DNA of 58,625 nt, filler included, from Basidiobolus ranarum (lineage: Eukaryota): assembly GCA_040143965.1 (NCBI GenBank). It is 3 parts of 3 records of this genome, joined end to end, with 100 filler letters (N's around TTAATTAATTAA, not from the genome) between each part and the next. Parts side by side here need not be neighbours in the genome. Positions count along the whole stretch, not along the records: positions 19,654 to 39,094 come from JASJQH010007125.1; 2 more parts are not named here. One strand, given 5' to 3'. Each line of letters opens with the position of its first letter. The first letter of the stretch is position 1. Positions 19,654-39,094 of the stretch are shown piece by piece. The notes under the pieces were generated by a model. That model ran no database searches and had not been told where the DNA came from. It saw only the letters and a list, made by a program, of their open reading frames with translations. Made by a program: the position numbers and the translations under genes.

Positions 19654-19784
19654 GCGGCGGAGCCGGCGGCGCTTCTGCCGCCACTGGCGGCGGCGGCTCA
19701 GGCGGTGCCTATTCAGGCCCTGGGGGTGGTGGATCAGGCGGCGGTTATGGAAGTAATGGTGGTGGAGGAGCCTATAAATACTAG
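19654..19784 (+). CDS. 3' fragment of a glycine-rich protein (structural/cell-wall-like)
   Basis: Frame from 19656 reads GGAGGASAATGGGGSGGAYSGPGGGGSGGGYGSNGGGGAYKY*. Sharp drop from high GC to AT-rich sequence after the TAG at 19782-19784. Confidence 0.65.
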
Positions 19785-20107
19785 GCATAACATCATAAAA
19801 ATGAAGAAACTATATAGCTTTTGTATACATATATACATATACCTTACTAAATATATATCAATTGGTGAAATAAAATTGAATTAGATCATTTATCAGAATA
19901 TGCATATTAGACCAAGTATATGACTAGTGATAATCAGTGTTCCTCCCTAATCACTTGATCGGTCAAAAAAGATAAAGTGATTAGGGTTATGGTTACAACT
20001 GTTACTCTCAGGCGATTATGATACTTTATAATGCGAACCTGTACTCTTTTAGTTCATTGCTCATTATTATTTTCTTTCCCTCCACTATTAATCGCAAATG
20101 ATTACCT

Positions 20108-20800
20108 ATGATCGAACATGTCACTTATTAGCTCGCGATAATCGAGTATCGCCAAGTAGAATATCATATAATAAGATACTCGGGTAACGTATATTTCACT
20201 TATCCAATCTTGGTGGTCGGTGGTGGCCCAGTAGGTTTAGCAAGCGCCTTATCCTGTGCCCGAGCGGGCCTTAAAGTCAGAATTATAGGTAATTAGTAAG
20301 CGAAATATAGTCCTTTTAATCAGAATTTTAGATAAAAATGAGTCATGTGACAAAGAATCGAGAGCAATAGACGTTCATGCCCAGACTATGGAGGTTTTTC
20401 GTAATATAGACAAATTCTTTGGGGAAGCTTTTCATGTTCAGGAACTCAACTTTTACAACGGAGGAAAGTATGTCGCTCAACTCTCTTTGGATCAATTGGA
20501 TACGCCATATGCAGCAATCTTCGTGCTATCCAAGAATGTAACATACCTGAAGTCACTCAAATCGTCAGTAACAAAACTCCGAAATACCTGCGATAGAGCC
20601 ACTCCATTTGTTGATCCTGTGACGAAACAAACAAAAGCGACCAGGATTCAATCATTGCCGTGAAGGAAACTTTTGGACTGAACAATATCGCTTATGCGAA
20701 TTTCGAGGAAGTAGAATGAAAGTTCGGATTCACTCGCAACCACCCAGTAGCCTTAATTGTTCGTCCTAATGGTTATTTGGACTTGCAGTTTGTCTTCAAA
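20108..20800 (+). pseudogene. FAD-dependent (FAD_binding_3, phenol hydroxylase-like) monooxygenase pseudogene with large internal deletion
   Basis: ATG at 20108 is followed by an in-frame TAG at 20129. Then PILVVGGGPVGLASALSCARAGLKVRII/DK...SRAIDVHAQTMEVF (Rossmann GxGxxG), and only ~350 nt later the family C-terminal motif ALIVRPNGYL. The DG and GD motifs are absent. Confidence 0.75.
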
Positions 20801-21422
20801 GCATATGCCAAATCGAAGAATATTTCAAGCGATTCATGAAGCATTAAGTCTTCACTGCTCTTCAACTTGGTGCACTGTATGTATATGCTCATTAGTCTAC
20901 AGCTCTTACCCAAAAATAAATTCTAACCCGTTAAAAGCAGCATTTATTATGATTTGTGGGTATTTAGTGATCTATTCCAAGTGTTTAGACGCACAACAAG
21001 CTACCTTGAATAGTAAGTATAGTGAAGATTTGCTTACTAATACAAGTATCATGATGTGAAATCAAACTGTTGAGGGAAGGTGTGACAAGGATCTCTGATC
21101 GTTGCTGTATACGGACACCTGTAGATTGGAACTGTACTTTAACTTTATGCTTTTCTTAAGACACTCATGCTTTAATATATTCGTTGCTAATGTAGGTTAA
21201 GTGATTTATACGGAACCATTTTCTTGATTGTTTCCTGTCTGATCTGTGGATATTACAATTTGAATCGATCTGGTAGTACAAGGAAGCACCTTTACTAATT
21301 CATTATCTTCGAGGCTTGTGGAGGTAGAAAGATAAAGTGGATTTGTCAGCTTCAAACTCCACAGGTCTCTATAAATACGGCAATAACTTGAGGTATTCAG
21401 TATTAAATCCTTTCAGTTAAAC

Positions 21423-22322
21423 ATGCCTTCTACCGATAGTTCCCGTTATGAGTTGTACTACTGGCCCGTCACTGGTCGTGGTGAAGTTATTCGCCTTCTT
21501 CTACAATACGGCAAGGTATTATCAGAATTGAGAAAATTAACAAAAAGTGCTATTTACCAATGATTTATATCTCAGGTCAACTGGTCCGAACGTCACCCCG
21601 TCGTAAGTTATTGATCTGAAGGAATGCCCTCGTAGATTTTTATTTAACTAGTCATATTCTTCATTTTCAGAATTGGCCAGAAGATAAACCCAACACTCCA
21701 TTTGGATGTCTTCCTGTTCTTATTGAAAGTCGGGAAGATGGCACGGTGAGTTTACTGACTACGCATGAGTGTTTAATTCGCAATATTTAAATGGTTTGTC
21801 ATCGCTTAGAAATTCGAACTTGCTGAAAGTCATGCTATCGAACGTTATCTTGCTCGTAAATTCGGTAAGAGATATATATAGCACTTAGTATAAGAGTCAA
21901 GTAGAAGGCTCACTCTTTTTGAATGAGTAACAGGTCTTGTGGGTGCGGATGAACGTGAGGCTGCTTTAATCGATAGCTTTGCCGAGGGATGGGGCACCTT
22001 AATCGATGCAATGATTCAAATTCGCTATGGCAGTACTGATGAGGCTAAAGAAGCTGGTAAAGCCAGTTTCAAATCTTCTTCGGCTGAAATTATTCAATAT
22101 CATGAGAAGCAACTCAAGAAGAATGGAAATGGTTACTATGTTGGATCTAAGCTATCACTTGTTGATCTTGTTGCATACAACTTGCTTCATTCCTTGAAGG
22201 GGGTTGGGAATAAAGTCTTCGACGATATTACTGGCTTTAACAAGCTTATTGAGACGGTCGAGAGCGACTCTGTTGTTGGATCGTACGCTCGCGAACGTGT
22301 CAGTGCTTACCAATTAGACTAG
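21423..22322 (+). CDS. Glutathione S-transferase (sigma-like, Tyr-type), 5 exons
   Basis: MPSTDSSRYELYYWPVTGRGEVIRLLLQYGK/VNWSERHPV/NWPEDKPNTPFGCLPVL/ELAESHAIERYLARKF and the C-domain GYYVGSKLSLVDL. 27-nt micro-exon at 21576-21602. TATA-like tataaata at ~21369. Confidence 0.9.
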
Positions 22323-23035
22323 AGATTCCTATTATCTATTCTATCACATGCCTCCACATCCAATGAGTAGTCTATTTCATCACATACCTTCACATCTAAT
22401 GAGTAGCTCGAAATATAAATGAAGTGTAAATTCTAGTCAATAAACTCAGACCTGGGTCAAAGGGATATGTGGAGTGGCAAATTCATATCATTTTAGAGTG
22501 GAGATTTGAGGAACTTGACCTCCTTGTGTACCATCCATCAACAACTCATTTTAGCCGTATATCTCTTTTCAGCCGTCCATCTCATTTAACTTGCAGTAAT
22601 CTAAGATAACGGATTGCTTGTATCACCTCCACTTCCATATCAATCTAATAAATAACAAATTGCAAGTTGAAAAAGATTTTCACTTTCTTTCGGTACGTTT
22701 ATTATTATTATTATCATTATTACTTGGTCTCAAATAGTACATGCAGAAAGACCTAATACTAGAGGTGTCACAATCAACTAAGCCTCTGTTATAGTAGGGA
22801 TTCCGAACCTAACGTATATTTGATCGCATGAGATGAGTAGACCGTATATAGAGTGAGATGAATAGAAAAGAAACCATAATAAACATCGAACCATCCAACA
22901 AAAAGAGAAACACTATCAAAAAGTCGGGACAATTCAAGGCTGTGATTATATTTACAATAAATAAAATTCGACATTGTCAGAGGTAGCTCCAGGTATCAAA
23001 TTAGAAAGGTAGAATGCAAATGGGGGAGGAGGTGC

Positions 23036-24508
23036 TTAGCTTGTAGAAGAAAGATCAGATTCTCTCACTTCATCTAAAGTGTCGGTGTTAACATTAGAGC
23101 CTATCCGAGCGAGTAAGAGGCGAAACTTTAAGCGTAGACAATCGAGATAAATTCGTTGTAAAGTTCCCTTGACGATGCCCGCATGAATCAAACGAAGGTA
23201 AGAGTAAAATTCGCATATCGTATACAATCGATCCCGACAAAAAGGGCAGATCTCCTTGGCCTCGGAGTCGTTATCTTCATAAAAGAATCTATAAAATAGG
23301 GGAGTTTGTATCACCTGTAGACATAGTGTACATCCAGTCTGTGGCTTTCTAGACATAGAGTCTCGGTACACTCGTGTTGCCGTTTCAATGATCAATGTTC
23401 CACCTTGGATGGAGGATGTAAGCTTACGCTGTTGAAACCAACCACGGACATTCATGGATTCGAATCTCATAGAAGCGTCTATGTCTTCAGCAATACAACG
23501 CTTTACAAACTTCGATGTCAACAGATTTTTGGGTGTCTTTGGCGATTCAAAATACTCTTTAAACTCGGCAAATCGGTAATCACACAAGTGGAAGGTAAGA
23601 ACGTGACCATTGAATGTCGATCCTTCGACATCTGAACTGTAACAGCTATCGTAAAGCGATTCTTGACGAGAAAGCACCGACACCCTGCTCACTGGTTCAT
23701 TAACGCACTTGGCCTCATCCTTTTCCTTTTCTTTCTCCTTCTCCGCCTTAGCACGTTCACTAAGCCATTGAGTTTTCTCTTTCTCCAATTCCTCCATTCG
23801 TAACTTCAGCTCATCGAGTTGCTCCTTTTGAAAGGCCATGAGATCCACCAGTTCGGCATTCTGTTTCTCAAGGGTTTCGTTGCGGTTTTCTATCTTTGCA
23901 TAAAGTTGCTTCTGCTCCACCACCATCTTATTAGCCTCTTCGAATAATTTAGTAGAAAGGTCCTCTAATTCATGTTCGATTTGACACTTTTCAAGTTCGA
24001 TTTCCCCACGCATCTCCGCTTCAGCCAAGAGTTTTTCATTCAGACGTAACATATCATTTTCGAGTTGAGAATTTCTTTTTTGTAGGTTTAATTTCAATTG
24101 AATTTTTTCCTTTTCATTTTGTTGAGTGATGAGGTCGATTCTGAGTTGATCATTTATCACCAAACATTCTTCATATTCAATTTTTAATGAAGTTAACTGT
24201 TCTTGAAGGTTCATATTTTCTTTTCTTATATGTTGAAGGATTTTTTGCGTTTCTTCGTTCTGATTTTTCAACAATTTTTCTAAACAAACGATCTGTTTCG
24301 AGGAAGCTTCCAAGTTTGATAATAAATTTTCTCTTTCTGAGCGAGAGTTGAAGTTTTCGGTGGAGTCTTCTTTAGGGTCGGTGTTGTTGAGAAGTTCTTT
24401 TGGTAGTAGAAAGGGAGTAGGGGGAGTGGAGTTGGAGGTGGGTGAAGGTAAGTGGGAAGGAGTCTCATTATTTTGAGCTCCACAATTCCAACACTTTAGT
24501 GTCGACAT
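23036..24508 (-). CDS. SEC2: Rab guanine nucleotide exchange factor Sec2/Rabin8-like
   Basis: Coiled coil with the Sec2 signature IEHELEDLSTKLFEEANKMV. C-terminal FVKRCIAEDID..RF, CTLC...ICPFCRDRLYTICEFYSYLRLI and RLKFRLLLARIG. Confidence 0.9.
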   Translation of the reverse strand: MSTLKCWNCGAQNNETPSHLPSPTSNSTPPTPFLLPKELLNNTDPKEDSTENFNSRSERENLLSNLEASSKQIVCLEKLLKNQNEETQKILQHIRKENMNLQEQLTSLKIEYEECLVINDQLRIDLITQQNEKEKIQLKLNLQKRNSQLENDMLRLNEKLLAEAEMRGEIELEKCQIEHELEDLSTKLFEEANKMVVEQKQLYAKIENRNETLEKQNAELVDLMAFQKEQLDELKLRMEELEKEKTQWLSERAKAEKEKEKEKDEAKCVNEPVSRVSVLSRQESLYDSCYSSDVEGSTFNGHVLTFHLCDYRFAEFKEYFESPKTPKNLLTSKFVKRCIAEDIDASMRFESMNVRGWFQQRKLTSSIQGGTLIIETATRVYRDSMSRKPQTGCTLCLQVIQTPLFYRFFYEDNDSEAKEICPFCRDRLYTICEFYSYLRLIHAGIVKGTLQRIYLDCLRLKFRLLLARIGSNVNTDTLDEVRESDLSSTS

Positions 24509-26157
24509 TGTGAGAGTAGAAGAGGAGAAATAGGAAGGAAATGGTGGAGTGTTTTTTTGAATTCAGGAAGATTTTTTCGAAATCTAGTTGACGATAGTGT
24601 TCAAGTAACTAATAACTAGTCAAACTTCAGTAACTAACAGGGGAGAGAGAACAAGAGTGTTTCGAGGAAACTACGAAATAAAACTAGCAGTAGAAGATAT
24701 TCAAAGGAGAAGCAGTGAAAGGGATAACGAACAATAAGAGGGTGTTTGTGAGAGGGAGTGGGAGCGGGAGCGGGAGGGAGATATTAGGAGTTAAAAAAAA
24801 GTTTAATGATTCTGCGAATTAATAAACTACTTATACATATCAATTCAAATCAATCAACCGCATGTGAATAACATGGCTCAGCAGAAGTTACTGGGGAGCT
24901 CAGATACATTGAATCATTAACTAATTAAGGAAGGTGAGAGTGAAGGTGGCGTAATAAGTAGCAGCAATTAATATGAAACCTCTATTTAGCTCTGGAACTG
25001 GAAAAACAATTGGACAACAGCAGTACCGGCTTTGAAACGCTTAAACTACTTCGAAACACGATTGAAACATGAGTAATTTTACTCCTCTATTTATGCATAA
25101 TCAATTGAATTACCTACGAATTACCAGCTCCCTGAGCGGGCAGCTACCATTTTGGTTAGTACCTTGATTGGTTCTATTTCCTTTTTCCATCTTCACCCTA
25201 ACCCTCACTCACCCTTCGCCCTAGGGTGAGTTGACTCTTATGCAAGGATTGTGAGTTTAACTGCACCTCGTCAAGTAGTGTGTTAGATGAAGAATCGTTA
25301 CTCAAAGAGCTCGTGACGATGAATATTAATCACAAGCTAGAGCTCGATTTTGCATGCTTATCCAGTTGCCGACTGAGCCCTACCCTATCTATATTATAGA
25401 CCAACCTCATTCAGCATTCAGCTAAAGCGGAGATCTACTGTGATCAAGTGACCCTCCGGACAAAGCGCTTCTATCTATATCTATGCCGAACTGTTTCCAG
25501 TTGAGAAAACAGATAAAACTGGAATTGTCGCAACTTATTCTTAACCTCAAGATACTGAATGTTCAGGTAAAGATTTTTGAAGACGTTGGTTAGCTGACAT
25601 CTGTGTTGACTTATAGTTGGTGATGTTGATAGCAAAGATGTAGTGCGTTGGATATTGATTGGTGTGCACGATTTCAGATGCGCGCTTCAGGTAATGAAGT
25701 AGCGGAGTACATAAACGTGTGCCAACTTGTTTAATAGTTGGAAGAACCATCCAATTTGAAGCAAATAATTGGGGGAAAATGATCGAATTTAATTGAAATT
25801 TGTCGTCAACATTCCGATTATTGTTAGATCATTTTACTTACGAGTTGGCTCTGGAAATACCCGTAGAAGCATCATGTGAAGCGAGGAGTATGATATCGAA
25901 ATCGTAAAGGGTTATGATCTTAATCTATTTTAAACCTGTCGAAGAAAAAATAGATGTTATGTAATGCCGGAACTTTGGATTTCTTTAATGAATATCCATT
26001 TCCTTACAATCATTCAACCATCTAGGGATGAGTGAAGCAGCCGATAAAGTGCTTAAGGTAGTAATCATCGATGCTGAGCAGTTGTGTCTATTCTTCTATA
26101 TAAGTATTCACTCACACACCTGAATGTCAAACAGTTATTTAGTGTTATTCAATCAAT

Positions 26158-27225
26158 ATGATTTCAAGAACCTGCCTTCTCTTCGTTACTAGTCTTGCAT
26201 TGACAAGTACATTCTTAACTTCCCCTGTCTATGCAGTTGTAGATGTAAAAGTTAATCTAGGAAGCAATGGATCCAATGGTGGAAAGAATTCTTCTCCTGC
26301 TGCAGGTACCTCCTCAGTCACTGCTACAACTAGCCTACGTTATTTGGACCAGACCTGTGGTGCTCAGATCGGTTCATGTGCTCCAGGACTATGTTGTAGT
26401 GAATATGGTTATTGTGGGTATACTTCTGATCATTGTGGGACCAACTGCCAGCCAGCGTACGGTGCCTGTGACGATGGGACTTTGGCCACAGTAAACACTG
26501 GTTGCTCTGTTCCGGGCACCTTTGCTGTTACTTTTGATGATGGTCCCAGTGTACTCACCTCCGGATTACTTGACTATCTACAAAAACAAAAGGTAAAGGT
26601 CACCTTCTTTATGAATGGACTAAACTGGAAGAGCTACGACACTCTGAATCCGATTCTTGGTATTTATAAACTTGCTGATGTGGTTAAACGCGCTTACGAC
26701 TTGGGTCATCAGATATGCTCACATACTTGGGGACATGTGGATCTTATCCAAGTGAACGAATACAATATAACTTATGAAATAACCCGGCTTAACAATGCTT
26801 TTGCCACTATACTTAACAAAGTTCCCACTTGTCTCAGACCACCGTATGGCGACACTGATACCACTTCACTCAAGGTTTTGAAACGTATGGGATACACAGT
26901 GGTAAATTGGAATGTCGACCCCGTAGACTGGAATCCCGTAAATACCATTGATGAGATGTTCCAAGGATATGTGAACCAAACCGGATCGACCGATCCCACT
27001 ATAGGCAAATTTATATCTCTTGACCATGACGTTTGGAATACTACTGCCGACTTCAGACCTATCAACTACCCCAAAACCATCCCGTTAGCACAACGAGTTA
27101 TCGAATACCTTAAAGGTCGTAACTGGAAACTTGTCAGTCTACCCGAATGTCTTGGGAGTACCAAGGCTTTCTATCGCGATCCCAATCCATCAGATCGCGT
27201 ATGTGGATCCAGCGGATGTCCTTAA
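26158..27225 (+). CDS. Secreted chitin deacetylase (CBM18 hevein module + CE4/NodB domain), copy 1
   Basis: Signal peptide. Hevein CGAQIGSCAPGLCCSEYGYCGYTSDHCGTNCQPAYGAC. CE4 motifs TFDDGP, HTWGH, RPPYG, DPVDW and LDHD. Intronless. Confidence 0.93.
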   Translation: MISRTCLLFVTSLALTSTFLTSPVYAVVDVKVNLGSNGSNGGKNSSPAAGTSSVTATTSLRYLDQTCGAQIGSCAPGLCCSEYGYCGYTSDHCGTNCQPAYGACDDGTLATVNTGCSVPGTFAVTFDDGPSVLTSGLLDYLQKQKVKVTFFMNGLNWKSYDTLNPILGIYKLADVVKRAYDLGHQICSHTWGHVDLIQVNEYNITYEITRLNNAFATILNKVPTCLRPPYGDTDTTSLKVLKRMGYTVVNWNVDPVDWNPVNTIDEMFQGYVNQTGSTDPTIGKFISLDHDVWNTTADFRPINYPKTIPLAQRVIEYLKGRNWKLVSLPECLGSTKAFYRDPNPSDRVCGSSGCP

Positions 27226-28140
27226 ATATGATTTAGAAATAAGCAGATATTATCAACACTTCAATACCCTAGATATTCGAATAAATTTATACCAATTAAC
27301 CATAAATATTATAAAATAAATACCCTAGATATTCCAATAAACTGTTAGTAATTAACAATCAGAATTGAAAGAGCGCAACATTGATATTCCAAGAAACTTT
27401 CCACAAGAGATGCTATCTGCCTGGGGATGCTAGTAGGAATGTGAGCAGACGCGTGAAAGTGAAGACCAATAGAGAGTCTCAATCTTTGTGTCTTGTAGGA
27501 CATAGGTTGACCGAGAACAAGTGTGTTACCGACCTTGATCAGAAGATAAGCGAACTGGTATTTTATCTCCTTTACCCCTCTCACATACCATTTCATAAAT
27601 ACCTAATCACTGATCCGAATTTGGCGTTACCATGGTAGGCCGCATGCTCAGTTACACAGATCCAATTTACTGGATACCGAATCCTGAAGTCCGATCCAAA
27701 CTAGCCCAGAGCGGATTAAATCAATGGCCAATAATCGATAAAGCCGTGAGACAGCTAGCAAATCAAGTAGCAAGGATGGAAAAATGCAGGATTGGTTGAA
27801 CTAAGTCCTTTGTACATTTAGCAAGGTCTATTCTCGAATATGGTGCCTTATAGATGGCAGAAAATAGGCATTCATCTTTTCATATATTCCAAGCGATATT
27901 GTATTTGGAGAGATAGTAACGAATCCTTTTTTAAGAACAACTTTAAAGGGTCATGCCTAATTTCGATGGGATATCGAGCTATGTTGAACTAAGGTTGTGC
28001 TTATGGGGAAGGTGACCGAGCCATATAGCCAAAGCCACCTCAAGTATTATTATCCACGGTATCAGGCCTAAAGATATAAATACAAGCGAGAAAATGCTCT
28101 CAACCTCACAAATCAATTGTATTGATCAATAAACACCAAG

Positions 28141-28755
28141 ATGTTCTCTCCTCTTAGAATCTTACTCGTTGCTTCCCTCGCAGTTACCTGCCTTGAAACT
28201 GTGCTCGCTGAGAGAATGAAGTTTACTTACTACTGGATTTCTGAAGAGAGTGATTTCACTGGACCTAAGGATGTTGAGCTCCAAAGCTGCTCTGGTGAGA
28301 CTCTTGCTACCGTTAGTCAGCAATTCGCCTCCGCTGCTCGTATGGAGGGTACTGCTATCTTGGGTGATGGACAAGTGATCAATCTCCAATGTGATTGCAA
28401 CGGTGGTTATAGCTGCTTCTCTTTCATCAACGAGGAACTCTACCCATATGGTTTGGGTGCTTGGGATAATGCTCTTGTACCTTTCGTCAGTGTAGCTTCC
28501 AATGATCTTCCCCAAGGTACTCTTTTGATGGTTAAGCAACTTGAAGGACTCCAACTACCCAATGGACAATATCATAATGGATGTGTCCGTGTTGACGATC
28601 AAGGCTGGGGATTGATTGACAAACAAATTGACTTCATGGTTGGTCTTGAGAAGTACTACGTTAAGATGGACAACAGATACGAAAACTATCTTAACTATGT
28701 CGATGTCAGACGTACTCATTGTACTCCTGGTACTTACAAAACCATCCGGGATTAA
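28141..28755 (+). CDS. Secreted 3D-domain / MltA-like double-psi beta-barrel protein, copy 1
   Basis: Signal peptide. FTYY first strand, SVASNDLPQGTLLMV (cf. 3D IAVDP..IPLG), CVRVDDQG (cf. AxDTG) and QIDFMVG (cf. RIDxF). MEGTAILGDG resembles the MltA QGSG..l.DG segment. Intronless. Family assignment is by motif recognition only. Confidence 0.7.
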   Translation: MFSPLRILLVASLAVTCLETVLAERMKFTYYWISEESDFTGPKDVELQSCSGETLATVSQQFASAARMEGTAILGDGQVINLQCDCNGGYSCFSFINEELYPYGLGAWDNALVPFVSVASNDLPQGTLLMVKQLEGLQLPNGQYHNGCVRVDDQGWGLIDKQIDFMVGLEKYYVKMDNRYENYLNYVDVRRTHCTPGTYKTIRD

Positions 28756-29769
28756 ACATATTAATTCCAACCTTACATTACATTGATTGTAATTCAGAAA
28801 ATGAAATCTGGTGATTGGAATTTTCCTAAAGATTATTTGTTATTGATAGTTATTAAAATAAATCTACTTGTTTTAATGGCCACTTGATATTGTTGTATTA
28901 AAAGTGATATTTTGGTAGTTCTACTGCACTTACTGGATAATATCTTAATTATCTCTGTTCTAGTAATTTACTAGTCAATACAGATAGAGAGCAGTTGTAA
29001 GCAATCCTGGATGTTCCCTTTAAATAAAAATGAATTAATGTGTTAGAATAGAGGTAATCTGCGTTATTTTGATATACCATTTCCTAATAGACTGGCTTTA
29101 TCAGTTACTTTAGGAGATTTCGAGTTGGATGGATTTATCCACCTTTACCCATCTGTTGGCATGACCTTACATCCTAATATGGGATAGCCTCCTAAAAGTA
29201 TCGAATTCTAAAAACTATCAAAAGATTTCTTTCCACTCAGACCCATTACCAGACAAAAGCAAAAATCTTCCGCACTATAAATTTATTGAATATGCGTATG
29301 AACTTCCTTTATGTTTACAATCTCTTCAAAATGCCTAATCTTTTTGATTAGTAAGCAACGTCACGTGATTCTCAATAATGTATGGTATTTTTAAAACTTG
29401 TATAGATTCAGCTAAATAAAAGAGTGTTAATTCTGATGACAAGTGATGATTTCTCGTGTGCTTCAAAATTCGAATGAATTATCCACTTCAGATACAAAAT
29501 CACCGAGCTCCCAAATGGTAAAATTATAGTGATGATTGGCGATTACATCTATGGTTGAATCACATCCACTCCCACCACAGTGTATGCTTACCAATTAGAG
29601 ACATTTAGAAGGTTGACGACAGTAGTTGATGAAATTCGTCACCACTCGAATTGAATTACTAATCCAACTTTACTATTTAAAGAAAGATATCCTACTTGAC
29701 TTTATGTATTATTCACCCACCAAAGCACTATTTTCATTTCGACACTTCAGAAACCTCAAATCTTTCATC

Positions 29770-30495
29770 ATGTCTAAGCCCAACATTACTGTCTACACCG
29801 CCAACACCCCAAATGGACAGAAGGTCACTATCGCACTGGAAGAGCTTGGTATTCCCTACAACTTGAAGACACTTTCTTTTGCCAAGAATGAACAGAAGGA
29901 GGATTGGTTTTTAAAGATCAACCCTAATGGCCGTATCCCAGCCATTGTAGATCATTCACGAAATGATTTCCCAGTATTTGAATCTGGGGCCATTCTTCTT
30001 TATCTCGTTCAACATTATGATCCAGAGCATCGATTATGGCCAAAGGACCTTGATCAACAGTCCGAAGTGATTCAGTGGCTTATGTTCCAAATGGGTGGAG
30101 TCGGTCCCATGCAAGGACAAGCTAACCACTTCTTCCGATATGCTCCCGAGAAAATCCCTTATGGCATTAACCGATACAATGCAGAGACAAAAAGATTGTA
30201 CCAGGTACTTGACGGAAGACTTAAAGATAGAGAGTATCTTGCTGGTGATCAATTAACCATTGCTGATATTGCCCACTTCCCATGGATAGCAGAGCACAAG
30301 TGGTGTGGCGTTAGTATAGATGATCTTCCAAATCTCAAGGCATGGTTGGAAAGAATCGACAATAGACCTTCTATTGAGAAAGGTTGTGGAAAAGAGTTTC
30401 TAGAGGAGCGTAAAAAGCGTAATGCTGATCCAGAGGCAGCGGAAAAGGTAGCTCAAGAGGCATCCAAATGGATCGTACCTGATCAAAAGCAGTAG
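29770..30495 (+). CDS. Glutathione S-transferase, Ure2p/YfcG/YghU (nu-class) type
   Basis: [54 protein letters not shown] and [10 protein letters not shown]. Likely start MSKPN at 29770. Confidence 0.93.
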
Positions 30496-30559
30496 TGAAA
30501 GCAGTAGTAAAAGTAGTAGTAAAATCACCTAACCCCAACTGTTTTTAGTGATTATGCAT

Positions 30560-30628
30560 TCATTCAATAGCTGGTTTCAATCATTCAATAGCTGGTTTCA
30601 ATCATTCAATAGCTGGTTTCAATCATTC
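30560..30628. repeat. Perfect 21-bp minisatellite (TCATTCAATAGCTGGTTTCAA) x3.3
   Basis: Units at 30560, 30581 and 30602, plus a partial unit at 30623. No spacers. Confidence 0.92.
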
Positions 30629-31072
30629 TGTGGCTGATGAAATCTTTAAGCAACAACAATACATGCACATGCACATATGAGTAAAAATTCGTTTACCAAA
30701 CCTCCACATCACTCGGAATGTAACCAATCAGTCACGAAATAAAGCTTGATTTGACCATTCATTACAATTCTGACTTCAAAATATGCACCTTGAGATACCG
30801 CACTCAACTCTAGTCTCATTAATCACTTGGAGTCTTTATTGAATGGGTAGTAGAGGGGGAAGTCGGCGCAAACTAGTAGAGATGCAATTATTTATGTGGT
30901 AAACCCAATTATGCCAGTTGATGTGGTAAAATCTAATTACGCCAGTTGACGCATCCATCCAAATAAATACACAATTGAAGGAAATTAGAGTTACTTTGGG
31001 AAGATTTATTATGTTCAACAAATCAGTTATTAATAAGTTGAAAAACCAATTGTTACGTATATGTTGATATGT

Positions 31073-31460
31073 TTAATCGAAAAGACCGAAACCCATATCA
31101 TCATCAGATTCTTCCTTAGCTTCTTCCTTCTCTTCAACGACAGGAGCATCGGTAGAACCGCTGGCAGCAACACCACCGGCAGCAGCAGGGGCGGAACCAG
31201 CAGAACCAACGTTCATCAATAAGTCGCTGAGGTTCTTGCCAGCCAAAGCCTTGGCAAAGAGGGAGGCCCAGACGGGTTCAACATCAACACCAGCAGCTTT
31301 GGTGAGGGTGGAGAGTTTGTCGGCCTTCAAGTACAAATAACAAGATATTAGTTATCAATACGAACATGATTTATGGTACAAATTTCCAACTTACGGTGAT
31401 TTCAACACCGTCGTCTTGGAGGATAAGGGAAGCGTAAACAATGGCTTGTTCGGCGGACAT
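31073..31460 (-). CDS. RPP1: 60S acidic ribosomal protein P1
   Basis: Exon 1 [22 protein letters not shown], intron ~31326-31394, exon 2 [27 protein letters not shown]...[13 protein letters not shown]. Confidence 0.96.
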
Positions 31461-31618
31461 GTTCTAAAACCTGCACAAAGGAACGATTGTAGAGAAGGAA
31501 GAACACGAATTCCATATGGATTCCTCTTTTTAACTATCCTGAGTAAATGGGGATTTTTTATTCATGATTGATTCAAATCAACATCAGCTTTCCCGATAAA
31601 TTTTAAACTATTGACAAA

Positions 31619-32950
31619 TTATGATGATGCGTCTTTGCGTGGAAGCAACTGCTCTCGAATTTGTACCCAAAGAATCGACGTGATAAAGGCAGTCAATTGT
31701 GGTACTCCATCTCCCTTGGTAATGTTGAATCGAAGCTTAGATTCACCAGTCGCGAGATTGAGTTGTTCTTGCAAAGTTGGGAGATTTGGATTGGATTCTA
31801 TATATAAGCTGATCATTGGTGGATATTAGAGCGATTATAGTTTAGAAATTCAAAATGCTCTCTTACCTATCCTCTACTATTTTGATGTCCAAATCTACCA
31901 CATAACCATTATATCGTGTGCTGAACTGAAGATCACTAATTCTCGGTGAGAAATCTGCATCGATCTTCAATCTAACATTGAATGCAATGTTATCTGAAGA
32001 AGCTGGAGTGTTAAGGATACTTAGTTATTGTCATTTGCACCAACCAATTGATGAAGTGTGACTTACGCGGAAACGATGGATTTTCCAGATTCTTTGGTTG
32101 TATTAGCTCCAGATACCAGTATCTCAGAAGTTCTGTGTACGATCTGATTGTACAGCTCTTAAGATTCTCGTAATATTCACAACAATTCTCTGTAATCAAT
32201 CATTAATAAACTATCTCTAGAGTAGCTTACTTCCGAATATCATACCTGGAAGTAATAAGAAGTCCATTTCTAATTGTGAAAATTTTCTATCTCGTTCCCG
32301 ATCTGCTCGCATATTCTCCATCTCCTGACACTGTTCTTCTAAAGTGATTGTATCAAGCCAAATTTTTTCAACTTCGGTTCTAAACCAATGATAATCGATA
32401 TTAAGTAAACGAAGTAGCATTTCTTTGAAGAGTGTTATGTATTACTGTTCATCTTCCTCTGAAGTTTCCATTGGTTTTATCGGATTTACTAGAGAAAGTT
32501 TCCGTTGTGCAAAGTCAATCTCTTCATTTACTTGTATACGACGTAAATCCAACTAAGTTTCAAAATAGATAATAGGTGAAATCAGTACTACCAAAGGGGA
32601 GGGTACTTAATTTACCCCTTCTCTACATGATAACATGACTTACTTCATATTGTCTATTTATTAAAGTACCCTTTCTTTCTTTGAGTTCCAAAAGGATTCT
32701 TTGTAAATCTTGTGCCGACCCATGTGCTTTTTCTAAAGTATCCAATAAAGTAGCTAAAAGTAGGTTTAGCCAAAAGACAAACAACTACTGTTGAAATAGA
32801 GAGATTAGGTTATACTTGAATATTTATCAGGCTCAGAGATATCTTCCAAGGTGGTTCGAAGTATTTCTACGTTCGAGTGAAAACTTTCTTGAAGATCTGA
32901 AACGTATGACATAAAGGAAGGCTTCTCTTTCACAGTAAATTCCAACGCTA
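31619..32950 (-). pseudogene. Multi-exon hypothetical coiled-coil gene, possibly disrupted
   Basis: A chain of coding-like segments bounded by GT-AG sites (FTVKEKPSFMSYVSDLQ; AQDLQRILLELKERK; LDLRRIQVNEEIDFAQRKL; HWFRTEVEKIWLD; NIAFNVRLKIDADF; ...RKDASS*). An in-frame TAA (CAG TAA TAC) lies near 32443. The 5' extent is unclear. Confidence 0.4.
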
Positions 32951-33788
32951 TGATAAATAAGTGATAATGGTGAATAATTCCACAATATCTAGATGTTTAT
33001 TTCCACATAATTATCCCAAAGTTAGGAAAAGAGATCCATGATAATTATCAAAAAAATTGAATAAAGAAATCAATATCAATCATTGATTGATCTTTTAAAA
33101 AGGGAATAGTCAGATATTTATTCAATGGTTGGTCATATTTTTCGTCTTTTTAAGTTAGTCAATGCTTTCGCGTGTTGTGGTAAAAAGTCACCATTATGTT
33201 TCCTAGAAACAGTCCACATCGATTTGTAGTGATAAAGACGCTTCCAAGGTAATCATAGATTGATTCCTGGCTCGGCAGAACGTTTCTTACGTTGTCTCTT
33301 GACATGGAATAGAGAGGATTCTGGGAGTGGTATCCTTGGATGAGGTGGTATACCTGGCACTCCCCTCACTCGCCCCCTTCGCAGAATATCTCTATGGAAA
33401 GTATGACACGACTACGCTTAGCCCAATTTCTAGAATAACTAAAACTGCGCATTCCTTGGATTTGACACACTTGTATTATACTTTCTATTAGTTTCATAAA
33501 GTTTTGAGCTTAAGTGACCATAGGCTGCGGAGTATCTACCAATGATATATATAGATGCGGAGGTTAGATCTGAGACGAGAACTTCGATTAAGATAAGGTT
33601 AAAGTTATCAAAACAGAAAGAAAGGAACAAATGATTAAATTAACTTCCTATTAATGAGTCAAATGATCAAATGAGATGCCAAGGTTTAGTGTCACTTGAG
33701 TACCCTTTTTATAAACTTTCACCTCCCCCTTTTGAAGAGGAATCAATATAAAAAGGATAGGGTGATGCGAAGGAATCTACAATTCAAC

Positions 33789-34166
33789 ATGGTCTACAAT
33801 AATATCAAATCCTTCAAAAAACGTTCGGCTTTTGACTTTACTTACGATCCGATTTACGCTGTTCCCGATTATAAAAGTATCGGTTCACCACGCATTACCA
33901 CTGACAACTTTCACTCCATGTATATCAGTAGTCAGTTTGGTAACAAGCCTACCACCGTCATCATAAAAACCAAGGAGAATCACATCATTAAGCCAACCAC
34001 ACAGCCAACATATAATTTGGAGAGCAATTGGAGGACCACCTGGAATGGGCCCACCAGAAGTCACACTAAACTCCGCACGATAAAGAGCAAGAAAGGGGAT
34101 AAGAAGCGGTGCGACTCATCCATTGTAGTATGTATTCTCAAGAAACTGCGGTTCTGCAAGCAATAA
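33789..34166 (+). CDS. Small basic hypothetical protein
   Basis: TATA-like tatataaaa at ~33746 and an ATG in caacATGg context. Open frame MVYNNIKSF...CILKKLRFCKQ*. No family recognised. Confidence 0.4.
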   Translation: MVYNNIKSFKKRSAFDFTYDPIYAVPDYKSIGSPRITTDNFHSMYISSQFGNKPTTVIIKTKENHIIKPTTQPTYNLESNWRTTWNGPTRSHTKLRTIKSKKGDKKRCDSSIVVCILKKLRFCKQ

Positions 34167-36638
34167 TTAACTAAGCATTAATAACCCCCTCTCCCGATTA
34201 TAAATATATTTATCACGCCTGTAAATTTTTTGCATTATAACTATCTTGTTTGTACAAATAAACAAAGGATTGAATAACAATGGACCGGACCCTTGGAATG
34301 TGCTGATATGAAATTGATAAGTGTTAGTATACTGATATGATATGACTATTACGCAACAAACATTTACAACTGGGAATTCTATTCATCATAATAAGCTTCC
34401 ACCAACCATTGGCGAATGCTTATTTACTATTCAATGCCAAGGTTTAATGTAGATCGACGGAGTTATCGGTGCCACCGCATCACTGTACCACCATACCACC
34501 ACATCATTAGATCTAAGGAAGGACAGATTTAAGGTTCAGTGGGGCCAATATTCCACTAATAGTTGAGACATAACATTCCAAGTCCAGAGCGCAAAATAGC
34601 ATCTGGGCCTTTCATGACGATTACATGGTGAGTTGGCATAAGAAACATGATATCAGCGAGTACTTAATGCATTCAACATTTAGATTCTTCATTTAATCAA
34701 GGTGTAGATGGTCAGGGTTAGGGTTAGGGTACCTATATATCTACATTAACACCAATTATTGGTGAGACGTTGCTCATGATGCTAATATCCAATTCTTTAT
34801 TAATTACCTCTCCTTCACAGGATTCGAAACCCCCTCCTACATATTACAAAACGTATTGCCAAATCCGTTTTATTCCAGTGTTGCTTTTCCAATGCTCAGC
34901 CATAAGGTCGTGTGTTATTTGTTTCGTTATGACTCAATATAAATAGATTACTGATACGTCCCATTGACCTGAGACTTGCTAGTTAAAAAGGTAGTGACCT
35001 TATTTGATACTCCCTAGTTCTACATTCGCCGCATTCGAGGATGCATATATCCATTCATGAACCAAGTTTGGAGTGAGATACTTCTGGACATATTATTAAA
35101 GTTTAAGTGGGGTGAGCATAAACACGAATAATCTGAATGGTGTAACATGAGTTTCATTTTCAACAATACATTGAAGGATGATGGTTAAAGTTGGATTTGG
35201 AATTTTTACAAATACGTACTAAATGTATCACTGGTAGATTACTGGCTATTCAATTTTTACAAAAACAATCCGACTATTTTACTGAGGATTTGGGGTGTAG
35301 GCAAGTAAAATTTAATCCCCAGTCTCTGGTCATCTCTGCTAACTCTAGATCTTTGTCCTATCTCTAGTCTGCTAATACCGTATACATATTTTTTCTGAAA
35401 CATATTAGAGGAAGTGGCTAGTTTGTTCTTGCACGAGACCGACTCCGCACATTTGGAATGTCAATATGCAACACTTTTGGACTGTTGCTCAAGGTACTGT
35501 TAATCAATGCTCAGGGTCATAACGCCTGATTCAAATGCTTAGAAATCATTACCTAAATGAACCACAATATCCACAATGGTTGTGATACGACCATTGGAAT
35601 GGGTCTTTCAAAGCCATTCCTTCTGTTCACTCTTGGTGAAAGAAAGTTTTCAAGTGGAAATGCGTTTGAGCATGGGAGATGCATTAACGATTAGAGGGTT
35701 TAGTGAGTGGAAATGTGACTGTGAAATATATATAATATAATAATTAGAATAGTTGAAATTGTTTAGCAAAAATTGAGTGGATTTAAGTAAATTTTCAAAT
35801 GAATTTTATTGACCTACAGATTACTCTTTCGCTTGTAAATGATTGGCTTTGAGTGGATTTTCATCTAAATATCGTCACTCTCTTGATCATGGTTACAGTT
35901 CTTCGATTAAAATTATTCCGGTAAAAGTGTTGAAAGAGCAAGAAAACATCGATCAATAGGGAGTCGAGATCACTGATGTTACTAATAAACCATCGAGGGT
36001 AAACTTGATTCTGCTAATAGTATTGTACTCCTTTCTGTACTGTAAGGTGATGATGAAGGGGGTAGCACGAGAAGCTATATGGATGAAACATACAGGAGCA
36101 TCCAGACAGAGTACTAATCATAGAAAGTAAACAACTCTGATGAACTAACTAGTGGAAGTTCCATTGAAGCAGTCTCTGACTGACATTTGCAACGATCACT
36201 ATCAGTCCTTAGTGATACTGACTTGTAAAGAATTATTTTGGAATTTCATTCATAAAAATAGAACAAACTAACCCCGATTAGGATATTCCTTATAAACACA
36301 TTCCATTCTAAATTTAGGAAAGAACCACCCAAAGTAACTGATCATTTTCAAATACCACGAAATGCCACGAAATCTTTGGTATCCTCTTTATCTTCCTTCC
36401 CGTGCATCAACGTGGCAACTTGCCAAATCCATTTCACTTCACTCACCATTAGTATGGGAACTTGTACTAATTTAATAGATTAAAGGTTAAAGATTTAGTC
36501 AGTCTTGAAAATACTCCATTAAGAAAGAAGGTGAAATTTCATTTATTATAATCAACATCTATTAAAATGACCAGTGAACTTTTCCAAATTACAATCCAGG
36601 TAATATGGAAGTGAAGGGAATCTATTGAATGAATCTAT

Positions 36639-37250
36639 TTAATCCCGGAAAGTTTTGTAAGTACCAGGAGTACAATCAGTCTCGGTAATATCGACATTGT
36701 TGAAGTCATATTTATCATCCATTTCAACGTAGTATTTTTCGAGACCAACCATGAAATCGATTTGGTTATCACCGAAGCTCCAACCTTGATCATCGACACG
36801 AACACATCCATTATGAGTTTGTCCATTGGGTAGTTCGATTCCTTCCAATTGCTTAACCATCAAAAGAGTTCCTTGAGGAAGATCATTGGATGCTACACTG
36901 ACGAAGGGTACCAAAGGATTGTCCCAAGCACCGATACCATATGGGTAAACTTTCTCACTGATAAAAGAAAAGCAGCTGTAACCACCATTGCAATCACATT
37001 GGAGATTGATCACTTTCCCATTACCCAAGATAGCAGTACCTTCCATACGAGCAGCTGAGGCGAATTGTTGACTAACAGTAGCAAGAGTCTCACCAGAGCA
37101 GTTCTGGAGTTCAACATCCTTAGGTCCGGTGAAATCACTCTCCTCAGAAATCCAGTAATAAGTCATCTTCACTTCTTTGGCAAGGACGACGGTTTCAAGG
37201 CAAGCAAGTCCGAGAGAAGCGGCGAGTAAAAGTCTTAAAGTAGAGAACAT
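36639..37250 (-). CDS. Secreted 3D-domain / MltA-like double-psi beta-barrel protein, copy 2
   Basis: Close paralog of 28141-28755 (TYYWISEESDFTGPKDVELQ, SVASNDLPQGT, CVRVDDQGW, QIDFMVG). Confidence 0.7.
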   Translation of the reverse strand: MFSTLRLLLAASLGLACLETVVLAKEVKMTYYWISEESDFTGPKDVELQNCSGETLATVSQQFASAARMEGTAILGNGKVINLQCDCNGGYSCFSFISEKVYPYGIGAWDNPLVPFVSVASNDLPQGTLLMVKQLEGIELPNGQTHNGCVRVDDQGWSFGDNQIDFMVGLEKYYVEMDDKYDFNNVDITETDCTPGTYKTFRD

Positions 37251-37985
37251 CTTGATGTTTATTGATCAGTGCAGTAGGTTATGAAGATGTCAGTGTTTGG
37301 ATATTTGTATTTATATCTTATCACTAGGTTCAGTGGTTGCTAGTACATGAGATAAATCATGGACCGGTTACCTTCCCCATAAGCACAACTTTCATTTAGC
37401 ATAGGTAACTGACCAGTTGAAATAAACCACTTGAAGTTGTTCTTGGGAAAGATTCCATTGATATCTTCCCAAACAAAAGATGTCCTTGTAAATAATTCCA
37501 CGCATTTAAGAATAGACTTGATTAATTTAAATTTTCTGAAAGTTGGCAGGATATAGACCATCTGAAATGAACCAATCCGGCCCTATTCCATCTTTACTAC
37601 TTGATTTGCTAACTGTCTCGCGGCTTTATAGATTATTGGCGGATTATTGGCGGTTGAAGATTTAATCCGTTCTGGACTAGTTTGGATCTGCGTCCAAGAT
37701 TCGGTAACCGATATATTGGATCTAAAGGAAATTACCTATCATGGTATTTATGAGATGCGGTATGGACGGGTACAAATAATGATGATAGAATACCCCATCT
37801 TATTACCGATATTCACAAAGGGGTAAGATCAATTTCTATGGTTTCCTCTTACGAATCAATAAAAATCAATGCCACTTTCACTCAATATTTATGGTTAATT
37901 GGTATAAATTTATTCGAATATCTAGGGTATTGTTGAATCTAGGGTATTGAAGTATTGAGGATATCTGGTTATTGCTAAATCATAT

Positions 37986-39053
37986 TTAAGGACATCCACT
38001 AGATCCACATCTCTGATCTGATGGAGTGGGATCGCGATAGAAAGGCATACTACTTCCGAGGCATTCCGGTAGACTAACAAGTTTCCAGTTACAGCTCTTC
38101 AGGTATTCGATGGCTCGTTGTGCCAACGGGATGGTTTTGGGGTAATTGCCAGGTCTGAAGTCGGCAGTAGTATTCCAAACATCATGGTTGAGAGCTATGA
38201 ATTTACCTACAGTAGGATCGGTCGACCCAGTTTGTTCTCTATATTCGTTGTACATTTCACGAACGGTATTTGTAGGATCCCAGTCCACTGGGTCAACATT
38301 CCAATTCACCACTGTGTAGTCCATACGTTTCAAAATCTTGAGTGAAGGGGTATCGGTGTCGCCATAGGGTGGTCTGATACAAGTAGGGACCTTATTTAGT
38401 ATAGTAGCAAAAGCGTTATTAAGACGGGATATTTCATAAGTAACATTGTATTCGTTCACGGTGATAAGATCCACATGTCCCCAAGTATGTGAGCATATCT
38501 GATGACCCAAGCTGTAAACACGCTGAACTACATCTGCAAGTTGATAGATACTGAGGGTTGGGTTTAGAGTATCGTAGTTCTTCCAGTTTAGTCCATTCAT
38601 AAAGAAGGTAGCTTTTACATTTTGTGTTTGTAGATAGTCCAGTAACCCAGAAGTGAGCACACTTGGGCCATCATCGAAAGTAACAGCAAAGGTGCCTGGA
38701 ACAGAGCAGCCAGTGTTTACTGTGGCCAAAGTTCCATCGTCACAGGCACCGTACGCTGACTGGCAGTTGGTCCCACAATGATCAGATGTATACCCACAAT
38801 AACCATATTCACTACAACAAAGCCCTGGAGCACACGAGCCAATTTGAGCACCGCAAGTCTGGTCCAAATAGCGTAGGCTGTTTGTAACAACCACTGGAGA
38901 GGTATCAGCAGCAGGAGAAGATATTTTCTCGCCTTTGGATCCGCCACCTCCTAAATTAACCTTTACATCTATAACCGCATGGGCAGGGGAAGTTAAGAAT
39001 GTACTTGTCAATGCAAGACTAGTAACGAAGAGAAGGCAGGTTCTTGAAATCAT
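37986..39053 (-). CDS. Secreted chitin deacetylase (CBM18 + CE4), copy 2
   Basis: Same length (355 aa) as copy 1. TFDDGP, HTWGH, RPPYG, DPVDW and LNHD are intact, as is the hevein module. Confidence 0.93.
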   Translation of the reverse strand: MISRTCLLFVTSLALTSTFLTSPAHAVIDVKVNLGGGGSKGEKISSPAADTSPVVVTNSLRYLDQTCGAQIGSCAPGLCCSEYGYCGYTSDHCGTNCQSAYGACDDGTLATVNTGCSVPGTFAVTFDDGPSVLTSGLLDYLQTQNVKATFFMNGLNWKNYDTLNPTLSIYQLADVVQRVYSLGHQICSHTWGHVDLITVNEYNVTYEISRLNNAFATILNKVPTCIRPPYGDTDTPSLKILKRMDYTVVNWNVDPVDWDPTNTVREMYNEYREQTGSTDPTVGKFIALNHDVWNTTADFRPGNYPKTIPLAQRAIEYLKSCNWKLVSLPECLGSSMPFYRDPTPSDQRCGSSGCP

Positions 39054-39094
39054 ATTGATTGAATAACACTAAATAACTGTTTGACATTCAGGTG

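Follow-up and report, generated by a model that had tools for sequence, protein, structure and literature searches.

The stretch of DNA analysed here (the window) comprises 58,625 nucleotides of Basidiobolus ranarum (NCBI GenBank assembly GCA_040143965.1) and consists of at least three concatenated contigs joined by linkers of the form N44-TTAATTAATTAA-N44 at 19554-19653 and 39095-39194, so genes on opposite sides of a linker need not be genomic neighbours. The gene under study, P0001, lies on the contig JASJQH010007125.1, which occupies positions 19654-39094 (19,441 bp). Its product is homologous to the bacterial MltA/3D lytic transglycosylases, of which the MltA type corresponds to CAZy family GH102, and belongs to an undescribed and widely conserved clade of such proteins in early-diverging fungi. 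The gene carries the following features.

28141..28755, plus strand: P0001 (copy A), an intronless MltA/3D-like gene of 204 amino acids (aa), identified from its open reading frame (ORF), translation, homologues, AlphaFold2 model and fold match
28075..28082, plus strand: TATA box TATAAATA, 66 bp upstream of the ATG and also kept upstream of the paralogue (repeat pair I11)
28141..28212, plus strand: predicted signal peptide, residues 1-24, ending in MFSPLRILLVASLAVTCLETVLA before E, with the mature chain starting ERM (inspection)
28225..28236, plus strand: T29-Y30-Y31-W32, putative counterpart of MltA T99-G-Y101-Y in FTGYY (relaxed hhalign)
28345..28386, plus strand: E69-G-T...G75-D-G-Q-V-I-N-L82, putative trimmed insert lobe, corresponding to the MltA QGSG...GDGSPLNF region (relaxed hhalign)
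28501..28506, plus strand: N121-D122, with N121 aligned to the first Asp site of the '3D' pattern, MltA D261 / YuiC D129 (hhalign)
28573..28599, plus strand: H145-N-G-C-V-R-V-D-D153, with D153 aligned to MltA D297 / YuiC D151 (hhalign)
28630..28632, plus strand: D164, predicted equivalent of the catalytic Asp, MltA D308 / YuiC D162 (hhalign)

The single ORF matches Basidiobolus proteins of 195-214 aa from end to end, and the gene is therefore without an intron, as a first-pass annotation of this DNA had said. This character is, however, not distinctive, because the adjacent Sec2-like, CBM18+CE4 and glutathione S-transferase (GST) genes likewise consist of one ORF each, in which the domains match completely; the split genes of the window (Nramp, epimerase and Hsp70) sit on other contigs. 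The predicted signal peptide, read by inspection, shows a hydrophobic core and, after it, a small-x-small site. Residues 4-16 form a helix of lower confidence in the AlphaFold2 model (predicted local distance difference test, pLDDT, 70-74), and all full-length family members in the alignment have a hydrophobic N-terminal stretch. Cysteines occupy position 17, within the signal peptide, and positions 50, 84, 86, 92, 148 and 194, in agreement with the six counted earlier for the mature chain, which is probably stabilised by three disulfides. The strings on which the annotation was built were also found in P0001 (SVASND at 117-122, CVRVDDQGW at 148-156, QIDF at 162-165 and MEGTAILGDGQVINL at 68-82). 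The guanine-plus-cytosine content of the gene is 0.441 overall (GC) and 0.410 at third codon positions (GC3), and eleven other ORFs of the window range over 0.40-0.47 and 0.34-0.45, respectively. The same contig carries eukaryotic genes, namely those of a Sec2p-type guanine nucleotide exchange factor (GEF), a GST and a CBM18+CE4 protein. With such neighbours and a composition like theirs, P0001 is a gene of the fungus itself and not a contaminant.

The AlphaFold2 model of P0001 was built from alignment A2, which contains 89 sequences (P0001 and chosen homologues under 300 aa), and reached a pLDDT of 94.6 and a predicted template modelling score of 0.86. Foldseek against the PDB returned 13 matches at E<=0.001, and the 12 listed were all MltA-type, with E from 1.5e-5 (2pi8) to 7.9e-4 and with sources in E. 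coli, Acinetobacter, Agrobacterium, Burkholderia (LtgG), Caulobacter and Neisseria. YuiC (E 2.3e-2) and an expansin (2.4e-2) came next, and other wall proteins with a double-psi beta-barrel (DPBB) scored 2.4e-2 or worse. A second fold comparison with VIA-align, run against 48,161 chains, gave Z 9.2-11.6 over 157-171 aligned residues for the MltA-type entries overall. E. coli MltA had Z 11.6 with a root-mean-square deviation (rmsd) of 4.0 over 163 residues, Agrobacterium MltA had Z 11.3 (rmsd 3.1, 158 aligned) and YuiC had Z 8.5 (rmsd 2.6, 93 aligned), followed by expansins (Z 6.6-7.1, about 90 aligned), loosenin (5.9) and cerato-platanins (5.2-5.3). Among structural look-alikes in the ESM Atlas, clusters of Zoopagomycota and Mucoromycota came first and a 3D cluster of Myxococcota followed. 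Comparison of the predicted model with known structures confirmed a fold of the MltA/3D peptidoglycan-enzyme kind, which had been proposed from the sequence, and not one of the expansin, loosenin or cerato-platanin kind; the proteins of these three groups, named in advance as the best matches that would speak against the proposal, all scored below MltA and YuiC.

For the sequence comparisons, 306 family sequences were aligned to a domain hidden Markov model and grouped by the column of the first Asp, which is Asn in 138 (eukaryote type), Asp in 154 (bacterial type) and another residue in 14. P0001 alone matched no Pfam and no NCBIfam family at E<=10, including the insert domain of MltA (PF03562) and the expansin, DPBB_1, barwin and cerato-platanin families of Pfam, and phmmer found no PDB sequence match. 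The Pfam 3D model (PF06725, gathering cut-off 23.8 bits) catches 3 of the 138 eukaryote-type proteins at E<=1e-3, Geosiphon P0043 barely clearing the cut-off at 24.1 bits, and six bacterial-type or basal relatives matched no NCBIfam family. Of the 136 candidates in a word-indexed search with P0001, 33 proteins scored E<=1e-3: copy B of the window (81% identity), proteins of B. meristosporus and B. ranarum (50-74%), Mucoromycota (about 36-45%) and fragments; several homologues bear the UniRef label '3D domain-containing protein'. Exhaustive phmmer extended this to 830 representatives at E<=1e-3, of which 432 reached E<=1e-10 and 23 reached E<=1e-30; the best 150 were examined. P0001 matched P0101 at E 1.7e-24 and P0108 at E 1.8e-23, and these two proteins combine Amidase_2 or VanY with Pfam 3D (E 2.8e-10 and 3.7e-13). 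Within A2 itself, the Pfam 3D model recognises 23 of the 89 sequences at E<=0.01, and the A2 profile found YuiC as its sole match among PDB sequences, at E 0.18-0.29 and with a visibly poor alignment.

Profile alignment connected P0001 with MltA directly. With alignment A3 (19 fungal and bacterial sequences) and E. coli MltA as target (P0303, K-12), hhalign gave E 7.1e-7 and a probability of 91.9 for residues 105-171 of P0001. A relaxed run extended the alignment to 170 columns (P0001 19-193 against MltA 109-356, E 2.1e-6), pairing FTYYW with FTGYY and GDGQVINL with GDGSPLNF and leaving about 44 residues of the MltA insert without a counterpart in P0001. The likeness to the QGSG..DG segment of MltA that had been noticed earlier was thus recovered in its GDG part, while EGT and QGS lie two residues out of register. 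Fold, profile alignment and matches to Pfam-3D proteins together show that P0001 is homologous to the bacterial MltA/3D lytic transglycosylases. It is a divergent, non-canonical relative that falls below the Pfam threshold, has Asn in place of the first Asp and has a trimmed insert lobe.

In the hhalign alignment, N121, D153 and D164 are paired with MltA precursor residues 281, 317 and 328, which are D261, D297 and D308 of the mature protein, and we therefore regard them as the putative equivalents; the correspondence is read from the alignment and not from superposed coordinates. The three-Asp pattern announced in the first-pass annotation accordingly becomes Asn-Asp-Asp, with its second and third members kept and N121 at its first position, and the retained last, catalytic Asp is matched by D164. 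According to the YuiC study, D162 (MltA D308) is the catalytic carboxylate, oriented by T91 (MltA T99), D151 (MltA D297) binds N2 of the -2 sugar or, in an alternative mechanism, acts with Y93, and D129 (MltA D261) is the remaining Asp of the '3D' name (PMC4499186). D164 is present in 129 of the 138 eukaryote-type sequences (7 gaps, 2 Ser) and in 152 of the 154 bacterial-type ones, D153 in 130/138 and T29 in 113/138 (21 gaps) of the eukaryote type, and since these residues are kept in most of its sequences, the catalytic machinery is conserved. C148 occurs in 137/138. N121 is the sole invariant column of A5, the alignment of the 138 members picked for Asn there, and its invariance follows from the definition of the type; D122, directly after it, varies across the family, and the bacterial-type relatives have Asp at the first-Asp column. 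Two further residues, E69 (28345-28347; 126/138 eukaryote type, 150/154 bacterial type) and H145 (28573-28575; 136/138 and 152/154), are almost invariant in both branches and have no conserved E. coli MltA counterpart in the alignment. Their role could be structural, or they could provide a second carboxylate or base.

Some variation within the family was also observed. In the Mucorales branch (P0012, P0018 and P0020 in alignment A1), the C84/C86 pair is gone through a five-residue deletion and a new Cys stands just before the catalytic Asp in G-[SGN]-C-[QH]-[LI]-D; this loss and gain imply that the pairing of disulfides changed inside the fungal clade. A number of short database entries (116-141 aa) have the Met of MEGTG as their first residue and resemble truncated gene calls.

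Among the matches listed, the named relatives span 24 genera of chytrids, Zoopagomycota and Mucoromycota. The family was found in the Zoopagomycota Basidiobolus, Dimargaris and Piptocephalis, in the Mucoromycota Mucor, Parasitella, Absidia, Hesseltinella, Halteromyces, Dichotomocladium, Chlamydoabsidia, Apophysomyces, Fennellomyces, Umbelopsis, Bifiguratus and Endogone, in the Glomeromycotina Rhizophagus and Geosiphon, and in the chytrids Geranomyces, Phlyctochytrium, Nowakowskiella, Lobulomyces and Clydaea. The nearest relatives of P0001 are nine or more Basidiobolus paralogues (50-81% identical), then other fungi, and the best named prokaryote match has 40.7% identity. A search for longer homologues gave one protein, Geranomyces P0086. 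At least eight distinct family proteins were seen in B. meristosporus and three in B. ranarum. P0003, P0004 and P0006 of B. meristosporus share one contig of 140,981 bp, two of them with consecutive locus tags (301604 and 301605), which suggests tandem arrays of the family in that sister species. A member with HNGCVRVDD, 38% identical to P0001, is encoded at 9503-10459 of a 58.5-kb metagenome contig (L099, GC 0.55); this contig is densely coding, and the genes adjoining the member (Mannosyl_trans3, Anp1-like, patatin and DUF5871) suggest a compact eukaryote or possibly a giant virus as its source. The IMG/VR viral contigs, scanned with A1, gave 54 pattern matches and no relatives.

A full-text literature search yielded no paper discussing a fungal MltA/3D family, and the main texts of PMC11291939, on genes acquired horizontally by 44 early-diverging fungi, and of PMC9391592 do not mention one. 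Possible horizontal gene transfer (HGT) is described for lysozymes of families GH24 and GH25 and a lytic transglycosylase of family GH104 in Umbelopsis, which is a different family (PMC7928374).

The gene immediately upstream of P0001 encodes P0034, in which Pfam recognised Polysacc_deac_1 (CE4, E 8.2e-31) and Chitin_bind_1 (CBM18, E 1.2e-8). Both genes have a second copy on the same contig in inverted orientation.

26158..27225, plus strand: P0034, CBM18+CE4 neighbour (copy A), 355 aa, chitin-deacetylase-like and predicted secreted (Pfam)
36639..37250, minus strand: P0002, MltA/3D-like paralogue (copy B), 203 aa, 81% identical to P0001 (homologue search)
37986..39053, minus strand: P0035, CBM18+CE4 (copy B) (Pfam)
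26117..28767, no strand: left arm of an inverted segmental duplication holding the CE4 and MltA-like genes (repeat pairs I1-I11)
36627..39094, no strand: right arm of the duplication, stopping exactly at the contig end (repeat pairs)

The repeat pairs I1-I11 of the two arms are 70-100% complementary, with 86% for the long coding pairs I1 and I2, and pair I11 (28039-28085 / 37305-37351) contains TATAAATA in both copies. The duplication measures about 2.6 kb, the full extent of the right arm being cut by the contig end, and the roughly 7.9 kb between the arms hold the GST gene (29629-30495) and few other long ORFs. Between copies A and B, the synonymous divergence (dS) is 0.56 for the MltA-like pair and 0.48 for the CE4 pair, and the ratio of nonsynonymous to synonymous divergence (dN/dS) is 0.186 and 0.177, respectively. 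The similar dS values indicate that the pair was copied as a unit, and the ratios of about 0.19 and 0.18 that both copies are under purifying selection. A complex prediction for deacetylase residues 62-355 with mature P0001 scored 0.00 and is uninformative on binding either way.

Chitin-related domains were also found fused to family members. In a Pfam scan of the 138 eukaryote-type proteins, 3D was matched in 3, LysM in 3, CE4 (Polysacc_deac_1) in 2, GH18 in 1, CBM_19 in 1 and DUF7107 in 2. The CE4 fusions are P0044 (687 aa) and Phlyctochytrium P0138 (1,644 aa), the LysM fusions are Fennellomyces P0041, P0058 and P0071, and GH18 is joined with EGF repeats in P0054; the CBM_19 of Endogone P0014 is marginal (19.7 bits against a cut-off of 20.1). 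The one peptidoglycan-related partner in these 138 is a marginal SpoIIP (E 0.00096). Of the bacterial type, 150 of 154 proteins were scanned, with 3D in 143, Peptidase_M15_3 in 3, Amidase_2 in 2, SH3_3 in 2, SH3_4 in 2, VanY in 1 and Peptidase_M15_2 in 1, and with no CE4, LysM or GH18. The partners have thus switched from peptidoglycan hydrolases in the bacterial type to chitin-active modules in the fungal clade.

With the A2 profile, 521 proteins scored E<=1e-5 among 8,000 candidates, and the following description is taken from the best 120 of them. After the fungal proteins came bacterial ones of 180-340 aa, with 30-39% identity over 73-93% of the query and nearly all with Pfam 3D; those named were from Haliangium, Haliangiales, Polyangiaceae, Kofleriaceae, Myxococcota and one 'Proteobacteria bacterium'. 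A scan of prokaryote species genomes with the bacterial alignment A4, which favours the motifs of A4 itself, gave 410 relatives, and by title the best 80 of these were from a myxobacterial taxon (58), a 'delta-proteobacterium' (18) or Proteobacteria/Pseudomonadota (4). The eukaryote-type motifs (A1) gave 32 pattern matches and no relatives in the prokaryote genome collection. One myxobacterial metagenome-assembled genome (MAG) (G001, 10.8 Mb, reached through locus L052) has no PF03562 match but a member of the bacterial-type subfamily, four such genomes have 1-5 Pfam-3D genes each, and many bacterial-type proteins have a lipobox-like start. The bacterial-type subfamily may be a myxobacterial stand-in for MltA.

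Phylogenetic analysis was carried out with two programs. For FastTree, 263 near-full domains were thinned at 62% identity to 148 rows, leaving out 31 partial domains. One branch (support 98) parts 78 eukaryote-type rows, among which are all 24 named eukaryotes, from 70 bacterial-type rows, among which are all 8 named bacteria, and both copies of the window fall inside a Basidiobolus-only clade of 9 rows (support 99). For IQ-TREE, 65 rows thinned at 45% identity were analysed over 180 columns with E. coli MltA as outgroup, after P0158 had been dropped for its long branch. The eukaryote clade had support 90/81 (ultrafast bootstrap / Shimodaira-Hasegawa-like approximate likelihood ratio test), or 98/87 with P0036 added; its sister was P0081+P0116 (84/93), P0081 carrying a DUF11 repeat, and bacterial-type P0037/P0040/P0045/P0046 came next outward (68/90). 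The MltA root landed among the bacterial-type rows. In the search for a donor, the basal and closest rows (P0037, P0040, P0045, P0046, P0081, P0116 and P0036) were all metagenome proteins, 32-54% identical to the best named prokaryote loci. The eukaryotic sequences therefore form one clade beside, or within, the bacterial 3D proteins. Asp at the first position is common to MltA, YuiC and the bacterial type, so the Asn of the fungal proteins is derived. With a bacterial superfamily, a derived Asn and eukaryotic members that, where seen, are fungal, a single ancient transfer from a bacterium to a fungus is the most economical history.

Considering these results, we propose that P0001 is a secreted, chitin- or chitosan-directed mini-MltA acting on the wall of the fungus itself, a reading to which we give an even chance. 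In this model, the double-psi beta-barrel and the shortened insert lobe would form an MltA-type sugar-binding groove in which the catalytic set T29, Y31, D153 and D164 is kept. The groove would bind a chain of beta-1,4-linked N-acetylglucosamine (GlcNAc); D164 would protonate the glycosidic oxygen and then activate the C6-OH of the -1 sugar, and the bond would be cut without water to leave a 1,6-anhydro-GlcNAc end. The substrate would be chitin from the wall of the fungus itself, either as such or partly deacetylated, and the adjacent CBM18+CE4 deacetylase would take part in its processing during wall growth or remodelling. Chitin resembles the backbone of peptidoglycan in that each is a beta-1,4-linked chain of the GlcNAc type. 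In crystals of YuiC with chitopentaose, a 1,6-anhydro-GlcNAc-GlcNAc product was seen, and MltA-D308A binds chitohexaose (PMC4499186). The switch of partners, taken with the likeness of the two backbones and with a 3D enzyme that cuts a chitooligosaccharide, points to chitin or partly deacetylated chitin as the substrate. The history would have been one ancient transfer from a bacterium to a fungus, followed by vertical descent and expansion of paralogues. More tentatively, and with less than even probability, early-diverging fungi in general would have chitin lytic transglycosylases derived from a bacterial MltA-like ancestor, cleaving chitin or chitosan without water, leaving 1,6-anhydro-GlcNAc ends and forming with chitin deacetylases, sometimes in one polypeptide, a module that remodels chitin/chitosan-rich walls; such enzymes may have been lost in Dikarya.

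Several points weigh against these proposals. P0001 does not score with Pfam 3D or MltA at E<=10, and the first '3D' Asp (MltA D261) is Asn. Chitin-related partners are scarce (7/138); LysM is able to bind peptidoglycan as well, and peptidoglycan deacetylases are among the CE4 enzymes. By tblastn, a CE4 gene was found near a family member in 0 of the 24 metagenome loci obtained with A1, a weak test in that 20 of the 24 were under 6 kb, and the metagenome evidence does not show the CE4 adjacency to be general. No Dikarya name occurs among the listed best-scoring matches, by which a true absence is not established. As to origin, the branch to the MltA outgroup has a length of about 6.4 substitutions per site. 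Holding the 27 bacterial-type rows as one clade costs only 6.04 log-likelihood units, and the approximately unbiased (AU) test did not reject a non-nested placement (p-AU 0.347). The nesting of the fungal clade among bacteria, which the first-pass annotation had set as its check, was recovered in the MltA-rooted maximum-likelihood tree and not secured by the AU test. A bacterial origin, and an ancient one, nevertheless remains likely, and the suggestion that a fungus had repurposed a peptidoglycan-enzyme fold fits the partner-domain switch. The idea of horizontal acquisition survives only as a transfer that we infer at or near the base of Fungi; as a recent or lineage-specific event it is contradicted by the 24 genera that carry the family and by GC and GC3 values that match those of neighbouring genes.

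Among other explanations, the strongest, which we nonetheless consider unlikely, is that P0001 is a secreted antibacterial lytic transglycosylase that has kept the ancestral activity and is directed at the peptidoglycan of bacteria, be they competitors, prey or endosymbionts. The habitats of Basidiobolus include guts and soil, and endobacteria occur in many early-diverging fungi. The conserved catalytic residues and the predicted signal peptide would suit this activity, amidase, VanY and M15 domains are found as fusion partners of the bacterial relatives, and the LysM of three fusions could bind peptidoglycan. All MltA/3D members of known activity act on peptidoglycan (PMC4499186), and the predation of Bdellovibrio reportedly uses a secreted MltA-like enzyme (PMC10127604). 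However, the partners of the eukaryote clade are of the chitin type (CBM18 on the neighbour; GH18, CBM_19 and CE4), the marginal SpoIIP being the sole peptidoglycan-related one among 138, the gene was duplicated jointly with a chitin-binding deacetylase, and the clade-wide replacement of the first Asp implies a changed active site.

A non-catalytic double-psi beta-barrel wall protein, which would bind or loosen chitin or other wall polymers or mask chitin fragments, is improbable. The barrel is common to expansins, loosenin and cerato-platanins at the Z scores given above, one of the three Asp is lost, and expansins, too, have a conserved Asp although they do not hydrolyse. Networks of chitin fibres are reportedly affected by loosenin-like proteins (PMC9888185). 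Against this stand the higher Z scores of MltA-type entries over about 160 residues, compared with about 90 for expansins, the conservation of T29, Y31, D153 and D164 across the clade, and the lack of any expansin, DPBB_1, barwin or cerato-platanin Pfam match at E<=10. Finally, a recent lineage-specific acquisition by Basidiobolus, or bacterial contamination, could appeal to the otherwise bacterial protein family and the intronless gene, but was rejected as extremely improbable on genomic context (Sec2p GEF, GST and CBM18+CE4 genes on the same contig, and a TATA box), composition (GC and GC3 equal to those of neighbours) and phylogeny, the nearest relatives being from Basidiobolus and then other fungi, the best named prokaryote at 40.7%, and the prokaryote genome collection holding no relative with eukaryote-type motifs.

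If the proposed chitin-directed activity is true, the MltA-type family found in chytrids, Zoopagomycota and Mucoromycota would bring another cutting chemistry to fungal wall remodelling, which is currently viewed in terms of GH18 chitinases, GH16/GH72 transglycosylases and deacetylases. To our knowledge, wall-cutting chemistry that forms 1,6-anhydro ends is not known in eukaryotes. The family would also offer a tangible example of how a wall enzyme of bacteria was redirected to a eukaryotic polymer of similar chemistry. The lineages with the family include agents of mucormycosis and basidiobolomycosis and arbuscular mycorrhizal fungi, whose chitin/chitosan-rich walls are poorly understood. If such enzymes release 1,6-anhydro sugars or chitosan fragments, these products could play a part in host recognition. 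The family is largely invisible to the Pfam 3D model (3/138), and its only trace in databases is the automatic label '3D domain-containing protein'.

Among known systems, E. coli MltA (2ae0, 2pi8) is the best fold match of P0001, at 16-18% identity, and would share with it the two-lobed layout of a barrel with an inserted lobe and the equivalents of T99, Y101, D297 and D308. The groove of MltA binds chitohexaose (PMC4499186). P0001 differs in its size (about 180 mature residues, compared with 345 for MltA), in an insert lobe that is about 44 residues shorter and has no PF03562 match, in the Asn at the D261 position, and in being a eukaryotic protein with a predicted signal peptide and six cysteines, whereas MltA has a lipoprotein anchor. 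The myxobacterial 3D lipoproteins (Haliangium ochraceum P0219 and proteins from Polyangiaceae and Kofleriaceae MAGs) are the nearest named prokaryote relatives among the matches listed and give end-to-end alignments that cover 75-85% of P0001 at 33-41% identity. TYYW, EGTG, the HxGC block, both Asp and five or six Cys positions are common to them and the fungal proteins. In contrast, they keep the first Asp (SVAVD), have HDGC where the fungal proteins have HNGC, and carry an extra PG..PWGGF loop, a lipobox-like N-terminus and peptidoglycan hydrolase partners.

Among the YuiC and Sps proteins, which represent the minimal 3D domain, YuiC of B. subtilis has the same barrel as the model of P0001 and, by alignment, the same arrangement of catalytic Asp, Thr and Tyr, but it is a domain-swapped dimer without the insert lobe, whereas P0001 has the extra lobe and aligns to far more of MltA. 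Expansin, loosenin, cerato-platanin, barwin and GH45 proteins share the superfold and are likewise small, secreted and Cys-rich, and some of them bind or act on chitin. They differ in their lower fold similarity (Z 5.0-7.1 over about 78-105 residues), in having no detected sequence or Pfam relation to P0001, and in a catalytic constellation other than the MltA-type set that P0001 is predicted to retain.

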